From contig DCVC01000177.1 in NCBI GenBank assembly GCA_002328625.1, positions 9,816 to 73,815 on the forward strand: DNA of 64,000 nucleotides. Direction: 5' to 3'. The position numbers are program-made. How positions within the stretch are numbered: position 1 is the stretch's first letter; each line of letters begins with the position of its first letter. The DNA comes from Bacteroidales bacterium UBA2198 (GTDB taxonomy: Bacteria > Bacteroidota > Bacteroidia > Bacteroidales > VadinHA17). Shown here in pieces: positions 30,001-36,000 of the stretch.

Positions 30001-33000
30001 CGTGCTTTTTCAAATCGGTCTATTGGATTACCACTGTACAATTTCAAGTCGTACCCATTTTGATTGAATAATTCTTTTTCATACTGGTAATTTCTGTAAC
30101 CTAAATCAATGACTGCAATTTTATTCTCCATAGTTTTATTGCATTTTCAATCAGTAGTGACCGACAAAACATTTTGTTCATCATGTCGCACCAGGTATGT
30201 ACTAAGAATTAATCCGTTTCAATGTATCAATCATGGTTACAAGGTTTTCCACAGGCACGTTGGCCTGAATGTTGTGCACGGTGTTGAAAACAAAACCCCC
30301 GTTTTGTCCCAACACTTCACACTGCTCCTGCACCTGTTTTTTTACATCATCTGGAGTTCCGAAGGCCAGTACTTTTTGAGTATCAACACCTCCTCCCCAG
30401 AATACAAGGCGGTCGCCGTATTTTTGTTTTAGCATACGGGAATCCATACCTGCAGCGTTGATCTGAATAGGATTCAATATGTCAAATCCTGCCCCGATAA
30501 AGCTCTCGATTAAGGGTTCCACTGCCCCGCAAGAGTGCTTGAAAGTTTTCCACTTTGTATTGGCATGTATCCAGTCGTTCATTTTCCGATAGAAGGGAGC
30601 ATACACCTCTTCAAAGTCCTCTTTGGAACAAAACTGGGAGTTTTGGGTGCCAAAATCAGCGCCGCACATAAAAACGGCATCTACGGTATTTCCCACCACA
30701 TTAAAGATTTTCTTCAGGTTGCTCACGGCTATATCCGTTTGCTTATCAAAAACCTCCATCACATAATCCCGCCGCATCATGAGTGACATATACCATTCGG
30801 CCACATCACGTATACCCTTCGGATTAATTAAGCCTGTACCCGGTACCAATGCAATATCTCCCACAGCTGTCCCACCAAAATTGGCAATTATTCCTTTCCC
30901 GGATTTCAGAGCCTTTGTTACTTGTTGATCCCAATATACGAGATCTCTTCCCGATATATGCCCGAATTCCTCAAGGTTGTCTTCGGGGCTTAGTACTGTA
31001 TCGTCAATAGGTTGTTGACGAATGACAGCATCAAAAAAATAACCGGCCTTAGGCATTCGTCCGCTCGCAGGAACCCCTGTATTTCCCTCGGGATAGATTA
31101 GCAAACTTCCATCGCTGTCATAAGAAGTGTTAAACTTACCTGGCACTAAAACTGTTTGCCCCCAGAAGGTACTAAACTCTTTCCAATCTTCATTTGCAAA
31201 ACCGAACATGTTGTTTTGAGGACTAATCCCAATTACATCAATGCCCAATATCTCCTGCAAATCTTCTTCCACTTCACCCAGCATTTGGAATGGTTCTGTC
31301 ACTTTAACGGGTCTCATCTCTAAACCATAATACCGACACAGGTTTTCCACTGCCAGTACATGTATTCCCGTAGTTGTCGTGCTTCCAAAATCAACAACGA
31401 TTTTGTCAGTTTGTTTGTGATTTAAAATTGCCTGTACTCTTTCCTTTGAGGTCATATATAATAATTTATTAGTACTTATAACTGTAGGTTAAATAAATAT
31501 TTATCTCTTTATAAGTGTCTGTATGATTTATTAATTTGCATATGCAAAATAAGTATTTTCCTTGTTTGTTAGTGGCTTATCCACGTTGAGTATTTTCAGG
31601 AGTAAACACAATTTTATATTGAAGTTCCGCATTCAGAATATTTTAGTCTGTAGTTACCAGAAAATTATGTATAACAAACTAAGAATAATTACTATACTAA
31701 TTGAAAACCATATGAATAAACGGTCGGTATTATGATATATGCCAGCCGGCAATTCCCATTTCGTAGTCTGCAATTGTTTATCTTTTTTAACCAGAGACAT
31801 GATGATCATTTGCGCGCAAATAATCAGAAATGAAACGGCCATATTATCGAGGAATGGCATTGAAGGATAAATCCACTTCAATAACAGGGGCACGGGAAGG
31901 GTAATTAAAACTGCAACCCATGCCGCCCCGGCTGTTGTTTTTTTCCAGAAAATACCCAGCAAGAACAGAGCCGTAATTCCCGGGCTTACCAATCCCGTGT
32001 ATTCCTGGATAAACTGAAAAACCTGTTCGATGCCTGATAAAAAAGATGCAATCGAAGCGGCCAGTGCAACAATGATAATGCTTGAAATCCTTCCGGTTTT
32101 CACCAGATTCTCTTCTGACGCCAGGGGTTTAAAATGGACTTTATAAATATCAAGGGAGAAAATGGTGGCCGCACTGTTTATTATAGCTGCAAGTGATGAT
32201 ACGATGGCTGCTATTAAGGCCGCAAATACAAATCCTTTGATACCTGAGGGCACAAAACGGTCGAGTAACCAGGGATATGCCTCATCAGGCCTAACAATGT
32301 CAGCTTTTAATACGAAAGCTGCAATTCCCGGAAGGACAACAAGAACGGGAATAATCAGTTTTAAATAACCAGCGAAAACCATCCCGCGTTGTGCTTCTTT
32401 CAGGTTCTTTGCCCCAAGAGCCTTTTGAATGATATACTGATTAGCACCAAAATAATAGATACCTGCAATCCATATTCCGCCCAGTATCGACCGGATTCCG
32501 GGCATGTATTTGTAATTGGGATCTGTTTTGGAAAGGATCATGTGAAATTTTTCAGGCGCTTTTTCCATAAGCATTGAAAACCCATTTAGAGGGCCATGTC
32601 CGTCCGAAACTATATTAAGAGCCAGCCAGGTTGTGGTAAGTCCTCCGAGCACCAGAAACACAACCTGGATAACATCGGTATTGGCTATGGTCTTTAATCC
32701 GCCTCCCGCAGTCAGGAATATAGAGAAAAAAGCCAGCCCTGCAATTGCATAGCCTAATTTAATTCCAAAAATAGTTTTCAATGCAAGGGCCCCCAAATAC
32801 AGGATTGAAGTCAGGTTGACAAACACGAACAGGAACAACCAGAAAATTGCCAATACAGTTCTTATCCGGTGATTGTACCTTTGCTCAAGAAACTGAGGCA
32901 TTGTATAAATCTTTTTATGAATAAAAACCGGTAAGAACCACCATGCAACGATTATCAACATGATGGCAGCCAGCCATTCATAAGTAGCTATGGTCAATCC

Positions 33001-36000
33001 CATGGCAAACCCCGAACCCGACATCCCAATGAACTGCTCCGCCGAGATATTGGCAGCAATAATTGAACTTCCTACCAGATACCAGGGAAGAGAGTTACCG
33101 GCAAAAAAATAGCTGTTCGAATTTTTCTGTTTATTAACCCTGCGCGATATAATAATTCCTACACCTATTATAACGGAGCAATAAATAAGAAAAGCAAGAA
33201 TATCAAGAAATGAGAATTTCATGCATCTGGTTTTTAATTTCTTTCCCTTTCAAATTCTTTTGCCGCTTCTATAATGGCCATAAGATTTTCCCATGGTACT
33301 TCCGGCTCGACAAGGTGAGTAGGACCCACCACAATCCCTCCTTTATTCCCGCATTTTTCAAGCCGTTCCAGTGTGACCCTTTTAACCTCCTCTTTAGTCC
33401 CGTAAGGAAGAAGTTGCTGTGTTCCCAATGTTCCCCAGAATGACACCCGGTCACCAAAGCGATCATGAATCTCATTAAACTCCATACATTCGGGTTGAAT
33501 TGGATTCAGTATCTCCACCCCGGTTTCAATCAACTTATCAATAAATGGAGTAATATACCCGCAGGAATGATAGAAAATAAGAATGTCCGGTTTGATATCC
33601 TTAGCAGCCTGAATTACTTTTTTTAAGCGGGGCCGGAGCCATTTCCCCCACAATTCGATGTCGAGCATAAGGGATGTTTGGGTCCCGATATCGTCTCCAA
33701 GGGAAAGAATATCTACTCCGGCAGTGGCATAAGCCCTGGCTTTAGCACAGGCAAAATCAGTAATTTTATCCAACAGAATACCAGCTGATTCACTCTCTAT
33801 CATCATGTCCATCATCAGTTCTTCCATTGAACGCAGGTACCACGAAGCTTCCCAAACAGTCATTTGCATGAAACCAAATGAGGCTAATCCCTTTTCATGA
33901 AGTGCTGATACTTTTTTATTAAATTCTTCCAGCTTTGATTCATCAATAGTCGGATATGGATAATTCATTATCTCTTCGATACCAGCGCCACGCAAAGGAT
34001 GGTGCATCCTTGTCATGTGAAATGCAAATTCCGATCCTTTTGAATGGCCAATGCCATATTCATCAAATTCTGTACTTTCCGGGACATTTTCCCGCTTGAA
34101 AAGTTGTCGGCCATCGATATAATTCCTTTGGATGTCTAACTCTAATCTCCTGTGGCTTAATCCCAGGTAGGTTTCATAATCGGTATGGCCGAATCGCTTT
34201 TTAAAGGCTTCAATTTGCGATTCACAAAACACATAATCTACATGCACTTTTTCAAATCCTCTGCGACGTAAACAACTTAATAAATCTTCTCCTGGCGTAT
34301 ACATAATGATTTTATAATTTTGTATTAAATTTAATAACTACCTCATTCTCATATTTTTCATGAACCTGAATCATTTTCATATAATTTCCCCATAAAAGGT
34401 CAGGATAATCCCAAAGGTTATTTATGACCAGGCTAATCTGTTCCGGTATTTTTTGTTCTACACGGCAGGCGACAGACGCATCAGAAACAACACTCAGTGA
34501 GTTATCGTAATAGGTGTTGGTCAATGTATAATCGTAAATGTGTTCTTTTAATGCAGTAACGATATTGGGCAAGTGATATTTATACTGCGGATAATCAATT
34601 CCTTTATAATAAAAATTACGTACATCATGCGCCCAATCTTTTTTCGGAGCCTCTCTGTATTTCTCATCAACCAGGTCGCGCAGAGGTTCTTCCCCTGAAG
34701 GACGTCCCAACTGTCCTTCCGGATAAGAAGACCAGTAGCTTTCACGGTTCCAGCTCAGTTTATCGAAGTTGGCAGAAAGTTGATACATTATACCCAGTTC
34801 AAATAGTTCTTTTTTTGTTGGTTTTTCAATGGAATAAGCGGTATTTATATCGCCATTACCATTGATGGTCACGACAAAATTGACCGGAAGTGAATCGTTA
34901 TATGATCCCCTGATCGCGATTTCTGCAAAATCTTTATCTATTTTCTTATTCAAACTGGTTAATTTCCAGCCAGGGACAAGGGATCCCATCATTTCTGCGG
35001 CATAATCAGGTTTTTTCTCCAATAATATATATTGAAGGAATGGTCCGCCTTTAATTAGCGTATCTCCTTTATAGATGCCGGCTTTAATAAGTCCGGTTTT
35101 TTTATCAAATTGAATATTAAAATTGCTGCCTTTAATTGTAAATGCATCCGTTTGTTCAACGATACCAATAATGTTACCATTTTTCTGAAGTTTAACCACA
35201 TCATGTCTTGCCTCACCGATTTTTATTTCATAAATATCGACAAGCTTATTATCTGTATTATAAAAAGAGACTTTCAACTTACTGCCGGTTTCCCAATTTT
35301 GCGCAGGAATGGTTTGTATTCCGGTTTCGCGTGGTGCAATATCTGCGCCGGAAACAAATCCTGATAATCCTTCATATTCCCATTTTACCCTGATTTCGTT
35401 CAGGTTAGTATGGTCAAAACGATTAAAAACTTCAAGCTCAAGCGGTTTACTGGCTTTTACCTGTTTAACCTCCTTTGTCAGAACGCGAATGGGTGAATAG
35501 GATTTTTTTACACTCCAGAATTCGGGTTTTTTACGTCTCCATACATCAACGATGCCCCATTGGCCATATCCAATATTTTTGCTTTCATACTTTACAGGAG
35601 AATTTTTGGGATTGATGCCCCACCAATCATCATAACCGGGCATGGTATCCGGCATCATAAATGTTTCGTCAATCATCCCCCATATGGCCCCGCCCAGTGA
35701 ACCTTTTACTGCAAAACTATTTATCCACATGCTGTCTAAGCTTCGCCCCCAAAATTCGCGGACATTAATATCGGTTTGTATTGTTTGTTTGTTGTAACAT
35801 GCCACATGAGCCCACTCATCATTAAATGTCGGTATAGTGTCATTTTCAAAATTGGTAACACTTAAATTATGGTCAATAACTTTCCCGGTATATGTAGGAT
35901 AGTGCATACTTAATATGTCGAAGCATTTTTTACCAGCCGGAACTGTACCGGGATAACTAAAGATCACAGGACGACTTTTATCCGCTGATTTGATATAATT

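Follow-up and report, generated by a model that had tools for sequence, protein, structure and literature searches.

What might two proteins of the uroporphyrinogen decarboxylase (URO-D) fold be doing on either side of a sugar symporter in a polysaccharide-utilisation island? The question is raised by a 64,000-nucleotide stretch of DNA from Bacteroidales bacterium UBA2198 (contig DCVC01000177.1, positions 9,816 to 73,815), here called the window. In it, an earlier note had proposed that the two proteins are corrinoid- and tetrahydrofolate (THF)-dependent methyltransferases acting on imported methyl sugars. That idea finds backing in the partner genes, in the adjacency of corrinoid-protein genes to orthologs and in the conserved synteny with transporters; what does not stand is the zinc-motif argument put forward along with it.

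The locus and its URO-D-fold proteins

All of the window's genes described below lie on the minus strand, and the three central reading frames are found exactly where they had been placed. Downstream of a gene for a GH2 lipoprotein resembling LacZ-type beta-galactosidases (34312..37272; Pfam GH2 N-terminal, central and TIM-barrel domains), the proteins P2 (356 aa, 33234..34304; PF01208 E 2.7e-23) and P1 (417 aa, 30202..31455; PF01208 E 1.5e-15) bracket a Na+/sugar symporter (SSS), a vSGLT homolog of 522 aa (31654..33222; PF00474 E 5e-59). The array had been described as one tightly packed operon behind GH2, which is true of P2 and the symporter, with gaps of 7 bp (GH2-P2) and 11 bp (P2-SSS), but not of P1, which follows only after 198 bp. 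The symporter matches the Vibrio Na+/galactose transporter (2xq2/3dh4) at E 1e-159 and is presumed to import the substrate of P2. The GH2 enzyme, whose N-terminus (...LLLLFPLFFGC) resembles a lipoprotein signal and whose closest matches among solved structures are beta-galactosidases (E 3e-58), presumably releases the symporter's sugar. Along with GH2, the GH29 fucosidases and GH127 claimed for the surroundings are present, and the island also encodes esterases (AXE1-like, PF00756) and a GH28. A second transporter, an XylE-like MFS sugar porter (25542..26939; PF00083 E 7e-112, and E 2e-92 against XylE), is a candidate importer for the substrate of P1.

Membership of the URO-D family was borne out for both proteins, which score 57.5 bits (P1) and 83 bits (P2) against PF01208, above its gathering cut-off of 23.9. 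They are paralogs, their C-terminal 200 residues being 33% identical (E 1e-27). Among the NCBIfam models, P2 reaches 73 bits against TIGR01463 (mtaA_cmuA) and 26.8 bits against TIGR01464 (hemE, cut-off 303), while the best matches of P1 are the MtaA/CmuA models (45 bits), with no hemE match; both proteins stay below the MtaA/CmuA family cut-offs. MtaA is also their sole significant solved sequence relative (P2 against 4ay7, E 1e-6), and the first or second fold match for both AF2 models. The P2 model (pLDDT 84.7) has the URO-D/MtaA fold with a TM of about 0.65-0.68; the P1 model (pLDDT 91.6) has MtaA as its top fold match and carries an extra beta-rich insertion at about residues 74-134. Within this family, P1 and P2 would be substrate-specific MT1 components, methyl donor:corrinoid-protein Co-methyltransferases, and not MtaA-like thiol methylases.

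A third URO-D copy, P3 (13150..14445), had been announced as more divergent. Its residues are as described (C322-Y-G-C325-C326 and C399), but Pfam and BLASTP detect no significant similarity (Pfam URO-D only at E 0.032), and it is at the level of profiles that remote membership of the superfamily appears. There, hhalign joins the P3 family to the wide P2 family (96%, E 4e-9), aligning P3 C322 to P2 H246 and P3 H409 to P2 H330. Among the 120 listed of 5204 P3 relatives none has a Pfam domain. P3 homologs occur in GH2 - P3 - MFS sugar porter arrays, and no corrinoid genes lie nearby in any P3 locus seen.

The candidate metal site

Residues H307, C309 and C379 of P1 and H246, C248 and C318 of P2 had been read as a His-x-Cys-x70-Cys zinc site of the MtaA type. 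The residues are present, with the His-x-Cys codons at precisely 30529..30537 and 33561..33569, but the proposed site fails because homology and conservation are both lacking for the third Cys. C379 of P1 aligns to L315 of P2, not to C318, and since 3 residues of indels separate the HxC motif from the helix, the "exactly +70" spacing is a coincidence of numbering. The residue at C318 is Cys in 8 of 105 diverse P2 relatives, that at C379 in 10 of 15 P1 orthologs. In both AlphaFold models this Cys sits where helix alpha-7 reaches its C-terminus, immediately ahead of strand beta-8; in a beta/alpha barrel topology, that position would be on the face opposite the active site.

The third zinc ligand of MtaA, in the PGCG loop after beta-8, aligns to His330 of P2 and His394 of P1, and His occupies this position in 82 of the 105 P2 relatives and in 15 of the 15 P1 orthologs. 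H246/H307 and H330/H394 are conserved through both families, and H307, C309 and H394 are invariant in P1 orthologs. The candidate metal sites are H246/C248/E272/H330 in P2 and H307/C309/H394 in P1. A thiolate-rich, MtaA-like zinc site is nonetheless not a feature of the family, as the Cys248 position is Asp in 75 of the 105 wider P2 relatives. MT1 enzymes of the URO-D fold are established both with and without zinc (PMC13222342).

Presumed corrinoid and folate partner genes

The earlier note had reported that no corrinoid protein was present, which is correct within the window but not beyond its edge. A sequence (L010) that is 100% identical to window 1..11218 continues past position 1, and at L010:18203-19744 it encodes a corrinoid protein (221 aa, motif GDLHDIGKN) and a Pterin_bind protein. 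The wider search that had been advised thereby located a corrinoid protein on the same contig: these two genes are on the same strand, 7-8.5 kb past the window edge; about 37-40 kb separates them from P1 and P2, to which they are not adjacent.

Two further partner genes, Met_synt_B12 and MTHFR, lie inside the window and had been overlooked. The latter encodes a MetV-MetF-type methylenetetrahydrofolate reductase (23930..25372; PF12225, i.e., DUF5981, MTHFR C-terminal, E 4e-25; PF02219 E 1e-25; NF006396 179 bits), presumed to be the outlet for methyl-THF. The former is a stand-alone MetH-type activation domain protein (23163..23888; PF02965 E 4e-12) that ends in a CxxCx4C motif; it is presumably the factor that repairs the corrinoid protein by reductive methylation. 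Directly upstream of the MTHFR gene, inside a 170-bp intergenic gap, lies a remnant (25414..25485) of a pterin-binding methyltransferase gene, corresponding to its 3' end; it has an in-frame stop and is 58% identical over 24 residues to the contig's own pterin methyltransferase (tblastn, E 4.6e-4). All components thus reside on one contig. A homocysteine S-methyltransferase gene (PF02574-like) could not be detected in the window, nor was one among the genes called on the extension.

How do these genes associate elsewhere? The P1 and P2 families recur beside monosaccharide transporters and glycoside hydrolases. Corrinoid proteins adjoin P1 orthologs of 53-67% identity (L006, L105, L107, L017 and L023); such pairs occur in Cytophagales, Bryobacteraceae and Opitutaceae. 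The Cytophagales-type operon runs GntR/PBP regulator - P1 - MtaA-like - corrinoid protein - URO-D/thioredoxin fusion - S-methyl_trans - CobW - Met_synt_B12. Full-length identity between its Met_synt_B12 and the activation protein of the window is 46%, and the corrinoid protein of the contig shares 60% identity with its counterpart in operons whose P1 ortholog is 67% identical. Peripla_BP_3 domains of the sugar-binding type are found in the regulators of the corrinoid operons. MFS or ABC sugar transporters adjoin P1 orthologs in 7 loci, with MFS porter homologs (40-66% identity) in L008, L013, L016, L017, L018 and L020, and a CUT2-type sugar ABC transporter (Peripla_BP_4) in a spirochaete. Around the closest P1 ortholog (83%, L012), no corrinoid, pterin, activation or MTHFR gene is found within 10 kb. 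As a candidate MT1, P1 would act on a second methylated sugar.

For P2, the SSS gene comes directly after it in 35 of 47 informative loci, an MFS porter taking its place in L100, and GH2 is present in 24 of 80 loci; several P2-SSS pairs are located among housekeeping genes. In L103 and L104, a corrinoid-protein gene precedes orthologs of 56-59% identity that retain all P2 signature motifs, the order in L103 being regulator - corrinoid protein - P2 - S-methyl_trans. The available flanks of 78 of the 80 loci contain no corrinoid, pterin, activation or MTHFR gene, with at least 5 kb on both sides in only 13 of these 78. P2 is a candidate methyl-sugar:corrinoid-protein methyltransferase (MT1).

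A proposed demethylation route and its alternatives

On balance, it is somewhat probable that P1 and P2 are the MT1 components of a modular B12-dependent demethylation system in a Bacteroidota polysaccharide-utilisation island. In this route, the GH2 lipoprotein, the GH29 fucosidases, GH127 and others would free methyl-etherified monosaccharides at the surface or in the periplasm. The vSGLT-like symporter would bring in P2's sugar, probably galactose-configured, and the XylE-like porter another one for P1. Once in the cytoplasm, the sugar would dock at the C-terminal face of the URO-D-type barrel, where the His/Cys(/Glu)/His site, probably holding Zn, would polarise the ether oxygen. The 221-aa corrinoid protein, presumably shared by P1 and P2, would accept the methyl group in its Co(I) state, and the free sugar would enter ordinary catabolism. 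The pterin-binding methyltransferase encoded next to the corrinoid protein would pass the methyl to THF, after which the MetV-MetF reductase would turn methyl-THF into methylene-THF; alternatively, the methyl would feed biosynthesis. Corrinoid oxidised to Co(II) would be repaired through reductive methylation by the MetH-type activation-domain protein.

Oxygen-free demethylation of sugars is made probable by the presence of a carrier protein, a folate methyltransferase and a repair factor in the same island. Against this route, we know of no enzymatic precedent for cob(I)alamin cleavage of an aliphatic sugar methyl ether, apart from the activation of methanol by MtaB. The sole carbohydrate demethylase found in the literature is a P450 that depends on O2 (PMC6292453, PMC10033563), whereas the route proposed for P1 and P2 would do without oxygen; no description of such a system was found. 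If true, it would mean that a reaction until now known only through an oxygen-requiring P450 also proceeds oxygen-free.

Several other explanations must be weighed. Rather unlikely is that P2, P3 and possibly P1 are corrinoid-independent URO-D-fold metalloenzymes (e.g., an etherase, decarboxylase or isomerase) acting on an imported modified sugar, the contig's corrinoid genes serving something else. This would agree with the lack of nearby corrinoid genes in 78 of 80 P2 loci and in every P3 locus seen, with compact GH2 - P2 - SSS and GH2 - P3 - MFS arrays that appear self-sufficient, and with the His/Asp/Glu/His set of most wider P2 relatives, which is typical of hydrolytic or isomerase metal sites; moreover, decarboxylase and methyltransferase are inseparable by fold search. 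Yet the characterised URO-D-family enzymes named in PMC10418091 and PMC13222342 are, HemE apart, all corrinoid methyltransferases, P1 and P2 score as MtaA/CmuA-like and not HemE-like, P2 orthologs do follow corrinoid-protein genes in two loci, and P1 orthologs sit beside corrinoid proteins in at least three phyla. Less likely still, P1 and P2 would be corrinoid-dependent MT1 enzymes with non-sugar donors, such as methoxylated aromatics of feruloylated plant glycans, methanol from pectin methyl esters, or methylthio compounds. Phenyl methyl ethers, chloromethane or methylthiols are indeed the substrates of characterised URO-D-fold MT1 enzymes, methyl-sulfur or methyl-selenide roles were suggested by Kountz and Balskus for other MtaA-like clusters, and the island's esterases and GH28 would suit such donors. 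The recurrent partners, on the other hand, are three unrelated classes of monosaccharide transporter (vSGLT-like SSS, XylE-like porter and CUT2 ABC with Peripla_BP_4) as well as glycoside hydrolases; the regulators bear sensor domains of the sugar-binding type, and methanol would presumably need no dedicated importer.

The partner genes themselves might have nothing to do with P1 and P2. That the corrinoid protein, pterin methyltransferase, activation domain and MTHFR form a split housekeeping pathway of B12-dependent methionine synthase is improbable, although their four functions are the modules of MetH plus MetF, none is adjacent to P1 or P2, and there is precedent for split MetH systems and for the sharing of modules (PMC12478193). 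Against it stand the missing homocysteine S-methyltransferase gene in the window and among calls on the extension, the way the partner genes are interspersed, on one strand, among those for sugar transporters, sugar kinases and fucosidases, and the operons that their orthologs share with P1 orthologs. As for genuine uroporphyrinogen decarboxylases (HemE), a name kept alive by the Pfam family and by JGI "uroporphyrinogen decarboxylase" labels, the chance is close to nil: the TIGR01464 score of P2 is far below the cut-off and that of P1 non-existent, heme-biosynthesis genes are absent nearby, and the synteny with sugar transporters is kept.

A D-2-hydroxyacid dehydrogenase (29166..30131; Pfam 2-Hacid_dh and 2-Hacid_dh_C) is encoded 70 bp downstream of P1 and may share its transcription unit; a 55% homolog is found near the MFS-P1 pair in L013.

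A polysaccharide-utilisation locus with two URO-D-family genes

P1 (30202..31455, 417 aa) and P2 (33234..34304, 356 aa), two proteins of the URO-D family, are encoded on the minus strand of the window on either side of a sodium:solute symporter (SSS, 31654..33222). A LacZ-like GH2 (34312..37272) precedes P2, and a D-2-hydroxyacid dehydrogenase (29166..30131) follows P1, all on the same strand. The open reading frames described in the earlier note are exact, and every residue it named is found at the codon given. Its “tightly packed operon” holds for P2 and SSS but not for P1. 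The gaps are 7 bp (GH2-P2), 11 bp (P2-SSS), 198 bp (SSS-P1) and 70 bp (P1-dehydrogenase), so that tight coupling to GH2 is limited to P2 and SSS; the long gap upstream of P1 may hold a separate promoter. Scanning 22900..37500 for terminators and for promoters of the sigma-70 type only returned no more sites than shuffled sequence, and thus could not define transcription units.

The same minus-strand array carries GH2, GH3, GH16, GH27-like, GH28, four GH29, GH30 and GH127 glycosidases and beta-helix proteins, together with esterases, sugar transporters and fucose catabolism genes. SusD, GH97-GH29 and GH16 genes lie beyond the right edge of the window, and the island is therefore a Bacteroidota polysaccharide-utilisation locus (PUL). 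The GH97-GH29 gene (L109:2352-5507, on a contig reaching just right of the window) encodes a 1051-aa fusion with an alpha-L-fucosidase (GH29), and adjoins the SusD and GH16 genes. Inside the PUL, a 251-aa reading frame (56116..56871, minus strand) contains only the CarboxypepD_reg and Plug domains of a SusC/TonB-dependent receptor, without the barrel, and is either a truncated gene or a pseudogene fragment. A carbamoyltransferase cassette (8426..13080, minus strand), made up of a NodU/CmcH-type enzyme, a small DUF5989 protein, an SxtJ-like membrane protein and a 686-aa GDSL-like protein, sits between sugar genes and the gene of the divergent third copy, P3; it is odd company for a catabolic island. 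The sole plus-strand gene of the array (27113..29131) fuses FG-GAP repeats to a xylose-isomerase-like TIM barrel (IolE-like), and a 65% homolog lies near a P2-SSS-GH2 unit elsewhere (L063).

Fold and candidate metal site of P1 and P2

Both proteins belong to PF01208, as a check of the earlier assignment confirmed (57.5 bits for P1 and 83 for P2, against a gathering cut-off of 23.9). They share 33% identity over their C-terminal 200 residues (E 1e-27), and by sequence they are paralogs. The hemE model TIGR01464 gives P2 just 26.8 bits against a cut-off of 302.95 and does not hit P1. TIGR01463 and NF004889 give 73.2 and 67.5 bits for P2 and 44.6 and 44.5 for P1, with cut-offs of 235 and 244; among NCBIfam models the pair is thus nearer MtaA/CmuA than hemE, yet far below every cut-off. 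The only significant relative of solved structure by sequence is MtaA (4ay7; E 1e-6 for P2, 0.002 for a joint P1/P2 profile). The AlphaFold (AF2) models are confident (pLDDT 91.6 for P1, 84.7 for P2) and match URO-D and MtaA structures with TM 0.53-0.68 and probability 1.00, but TM is equal for MtaA and HemE, which cannot be separated in this way. P1 has an extra beta-rich insertion at about residues 74-134. In P2, residues 80-102 (33999..34067; F-D-E-Y-G-I-G-H-S-K-G-S-E-F-A-F-H-M-T-R-M-H-H) are almost invariant among orthologs. The model is of low confidence (pLDDT below 50) in this His-rich segment and nowhere else; the segment may serve as a mobile lid, or as a second element that binds metal or substrate.

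The zinc site first proposed for both proteins, His-x-Cys-x70-Cys, does not survive alignment. Its first half does exist, with a His-x-Cys aligned with the MtaA motif after strand beta-6. The third Cys is neither aligned between P1 and P2 nor well conserved: C379 of P1 stands opposite L315 of P2 rather than C318, the equal spacing of 70 being due to three residues of indels. A Cys occurs at C318 in 8 of 105 diverse P2 relatives, and at C379 in 10 of 15 P1 orthologs. In the models, both residues lie at the C-terminal end of helix alpha-7, directly before strand beta-8. When the geometry is argued from strand and helix topology, this puts them on the barrel face opposite the catalytic one in the predicted structures. 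The last Cys of the MtaA-type site, in the loop after beta-8 (PGCG), is missing from P1 and P2. Aligned with it are His394 of P1, kept in 15/15 orthologs, and His330 of P2, kept in 82/105 relatives. His246 of P2 and His307 of P1 are nearly invariant, while position 248 of P2 is Cys in 28 and Asp in 75 members of the wider family, and Glu272, 24 residues past Cys248, is kept in 86/105. From these alignments, a plausible candidate metal site would consist of His/Cys(Asp)/Glu/His in P2 and His/Cys/His in P1. URO-D-fold enzymes that transfer methyl groups from a donor to a corrinoid protein (MT1) are in any case not defined by zinc, since CdmB and a Moorella enzyme do without it (PMC13222342).

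P3 (13150..14445, minus strand) is a remote barrel of the same superfamily. Its Pfam URO-D score is sub-threshold (13.7 bits), BLASTP finds no significant similarity to P1, and a search of solved-structure sequences returned nothing relevant, so that its placement comes from profile-profile comparison only (hhalign 96%, E 4e-9). There, C322 is aligned with H246 of P2, and H409 with H330. The motif C-Y-G-C-C-E-P is invariant in its family, where none of the 120 relatives listed has a Pfam domain.

Corrinoid and one-carbon genes on the contig and around orthologs

Annotating the whole window brought to light two genes that the earlier note had missed, both on the minus strand. One (23163..23888) encodes a MetH-type activation domain standing alone (PF02965, E 4e-12), the other (23930..25372) a methylenetetrahydrofolate reductase (MTHFR) of the MetV-MetF type. 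A DxHxxG corrinoid protein is indeed absent from the window, but it is present on the contig. A public contig (L010), 100% identical to the window where they overlap, runs on past position 1. On the strand of P1 and P2, it encodes a 221-aa corrinoid protein (L010:18203-18868; B12-binding_2 and B12-binding domains, GDLHDIGKN) and, 21 bp further on, a 284-aa pterin-binding methyltransferase (L010:18890-19744; Pterin_bind). These genes fall at about -7.0 to -8.5 kb in window coordinates; the corrinoid gene is about 37-40 kb from P1 and P2. Six genes come before it in the extension: a DUF6786 protein, a fucose-isomerase-like protein, a GntR/UTRA regulator, and three sugar-catabolism enzymes (an oxidoreductase, a Zn-dependent alcohol dehydrogenase and an FGGY kinase).

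The two halves of this one-carbon (C1) module are tied together by a relic. Just upstream of the MTHFR gene, in the 170-bp gap separating it from an MFS porter, lies the 3′-end of a pterin methyltransferase gene (25414..25485, minus strand; 24 codons and an in-frame stop), with 58% identity to the copy that is intact. It points to an ancestral operon, pterin methyltransferase - MTHFR - activation, that rearrangement has broken up. Of the parts of a three-component demethylase, the contig thus encodes the corrinoid protein and a pterin-binding candidate for MT2, the methyl-corrinoid:tetrahydrofolate methyltransferase. No ATP-dependent reductive activase of the RACo/RamA type is encoded in the window, as had been noted before, or in the 9.6-kb extension. 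The MetH-type activation protein is found instead, both here and in the Cytophagales operons described below. The stand-alone activation proteins at 23163..23888 and L006:16482-17195 end in a conserved CxxCx4C (YTCKLCNIKSCIY and YMCQHCDMVNCIY). This motif, which is not known from canonical MetH, may bind a metal or an Fe-S cluster through which electrons enter. Neither a cobalamin riboswitch nor any other RNA family turned up when the window and extension were scanned with Rfam.

Relatives are numerous: at least 8000 were returned for P1, 3543 for P2 and 5204 for P3. When their neighbourhoods are surveyed, a check suggested in the earlier note, P1 and P2 orthologs do recur beside GH, SSS or MFS genes. 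The closest P1 relatives are from Prolixibacteraceae and Bacteroidales MAGs, and a search of genome contigs with P1 returned 13 loci. In Cytophagales-type genomes, orthologs 66-67% identical to P1 stand in an operon (L006:9022-17195, L105:8973-17169, L107:8973-16733) that begins with a GntR/Peripla_BP_3 regulator and P1, and continues with an MtaA-like protein, a corrinoid protein, a URO-D/thioredoxin fusion, S-methyl_trans (resembling homocysteine S-methyltransferase), CobW and Met_synt_B12. The MtaA-like gene is canonical (HICG...AGCE) and separate from the P1 ortholog; the corrinoid and activation proteins are 60% and 46% identical to those of our contig. This arrangement suggests that these aerobes synthesize methionine from an alternative methyl donor rather than from methyl-THF. 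A Bryobacteraceae MAG has the order P1 - corrinoid protein - MFS - S-methyl_trans, and in an Opitutaceae MAG the P1 ortholog abuts a corrinoid protein. An XylE-like MFS sugar porter adjoins the P1 ortholog in six loci of Bacteroidota and Acidobacteriota, a CUT2-type sugar ABC transporter lies beside it in a spirochaete, and P1 orthologs are also found among GH78, GH106, GH127 and GH43 genes.

P2 is highly conserved, with the best 120 of its hits at 70-86% identity. In metagenomic loci (80 in all), SSS is directly 3′ of P2 in 35 of the 47 with enough downstream sequence, while in one locus (L100) an XylE-like porter takes its place; GH2 occurs in 24 of the 80 and sulfatases in 16. These sulfatase genes often surround P2 orthologs without an adjacent SSS in marine or saline metagenomes (L082-L101; 16 loci), some of which encode a further HxC-containing URO-D-like paralog (e.g., L094:589-1734); such loci point to sulfated, methylated algal glycans. 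P3 homologs are found in GH2 - P3 - MFS sugar porter - GH27/36 - aldose epimerase arrays (e.g., L112:5026-10635), which parallel GH2 - P2 - SSS.

A candidate corrinoid route for methylated sugars

On evidence that is purely genomic, the most economical reading, and one that we consider somewhat probable, is a modular B12-dependent demethylase integrated in the PUL. P1 and P2 would be donor-specific MT1 enzymes for two different imported monosaccharide methyl ethers. The corrinoid protein would carry the methyl group, the pterin-binding protein would act as MT2, and MetV-MetF would provide the outlet. The MetH-type activation domain would be the repair factor, replacing the RamA/RACo activase of classical O-demethylases. 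The substrate of P2 is probably galactose-configured, because SSS is closely homologous to vSGLT, which transports Na+ and galactose in Vibrio (E 1e-159), and GH2 is LacZ-like. It is also quite possible, and put forward tentatively, that P1, P2 and perhaps P3 form a widespread, unrecognised class of cytoplasmic carbohydrate O-demethylases methylating a shared corrinoid protein. Their donors would be methyl-etherified monosaccharides brought in by dedicated sugar transporters. The methyl group would enter the folate C1 pool here, and would go straight into methionine in Cytophagales-type operons, with their corrinoid protein, S-methyltransferase and activation domain.

Could these proteins convert sugars without any corrinoid? 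This seems unlikely, and the best case for it is made by P2 and P3: 78 of the 80 P2 loci lack corrinoid genes, and no corrinoid link was seen in the P3 loci examined. In the other two P2 loci (L103, L104), which have the most divergent orthologs (56-59% identity) but preserve all P2 signature motifs, the P2 gene stands directly behind that of a corrinoid protein. The more complete L103 has the order regulator - corrinoid protein - P2 - S-methyl_trans, an architecture that it shares with the P1 operons. The C1 genes might also be merely a housekeeping split methionine synthase, whose modules are likewise separate genes. We hold this to be very improbable. The P1 ortholog directly adjoins a corrinoid protein gene in five loci (L006, L105, L107, L017, L023).

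A corrinoid-dependent MT1 with non-sugar methyl donors would keep this link to corrinoid proteins and agree with the donors of known URO-D-fold MT1 enzymes; amid so many sugar transporters and glycosidases it is decidedly unlikely. Two specific donors were rejected: methanol, since dedicated monosaccharide transporters recur beside P1 and P2 genes, and methyl-inositols, since iolB/C/D-type genes are absent and only generic IolE-like and GFO/IDH/MocA-family oxidoreductase folds are present. The name of the family would make P1 and P2 HemE, an identity rejected on both scores and gene context and practically untenable: the window has no heme or tetrapyrrole genes, and the neighbours are glycosidases, sugar transporters and C1 enzymes.

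Methyl ethers decorate the sugars of several plant, algal and microbial glycans, and are thought to block degradation. RG-II contains 2-O-methyl-fucose and 2-O-methyl-xylose, porphyran and agar contain 6-O-methyl-galactose, and the polysaccharides of algae and microbes include methylated rhamnose and galactose. If true, the demethylase reading would mean that such “recalcitrant” sugars are used independently of oxygen by anaerobic and also aerobic glycan degraders. It would explain how they are disposed of in digesters, guts and sediments without oxygen, tie the breakdown of glycans to the supply of B12 and to C1 metabolism, and assign a role to thousands of genes that now bear the label “uroporphyrinogen decarboxylase family” or “hypothetical.” It is directly testable, because a single contig encodes candidates for the enzymes, the carrier protein, MT2 and the repair factor. 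Methylated sugars have been reported to resist gut bacteria and to accumulate in sea water (PMC6292453). In the literature searched, outside which subscription journals mostly fell, there was no report of corrinoid-dependent sugar demethylation, and the only carbohydrate demethylase described was an O2-dependent P450 (PMC6292453, PMC10033563). The system would be a modular corrinoid methyltransferase, a known kind, with a carbohydrate-demethylating use not described in that literature.

With MtaA/MtbA (4ay7), P1 and P2 have the fold and the His-x-Cys in common, but the third Cys ligand of MtaA is a His in P1 and P2. MtaA is moreover an MT2 and methylates a thiol; the role proposed for P1 and P2 is that of MT1. 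Coenzyme M is not expected in Bacteroidota. There is also a likeness to the URO-D-fold MT1 enzymes OdmB, VdmB, MtvB, MtoB and CdmB, with OdmB, VdmB and CdmB compared through their published descriptions. They have a barrel with elaborations between the first strands, as in P1 and P2 (the CdmB extensions are in the region matching the P1 insertion), and work with a separate small DxHxxG corrinoid protein and a pterin-binding MT2 making methyl-THF, as proposed here. Some members contain zinc and others do not (PMC13222342). The known enzymes have phenyl methyl ethers or halomethanes as substrates, are found in acetogens, organohalide respirers and methanogens, and use an ATP-dependent activase of the RACo/RamA type; P1 and P2 stand among the sugar transporters and glycosidases of a Bacteroidota PUL, with a presumed repair factor of the MetH type.

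The proposed role is the same as that of the P450 6-O-methyl-D-galactose demethylase of marine Bacteroidota porphyran PULs, which removes the methyl ether from a PUL-released monosaccharide for central metabolism (PMC6292453, PMC10033563). The two systems are unrelated in protein family and in chemistry. The P450 depends on O2 and on redox partners, and formaldehyde is its by-product, whereas the proposed system would use Co(I) nucleophilic chemistry without oxygen and conserve the methyl group as methyl-THF. MetH, split MetH and MtgBCD-type systems also have corrinoid carrier, pterin-binding, MetH-type reactivation and S-methyltransferase modules as separate genes, and operate in aerobes too (PMC12478193); their donor-specific module is of the MttB family or a pterin module, instead of the URO-D fold seen here. 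Type 1 mlp clusters, of unknown function, also combine several UroD-superfamily MtaA-like proteins with a corrinoid protein in non-methanogens (PMC10418091). Proposed for methyl-sulfur or methyl-selenium compounds, they occur only in obligate anaerobes, mostly Firmicutes, and unlike the present locus they include Ram/RACE activases and no sugar genes (PMC10418091).
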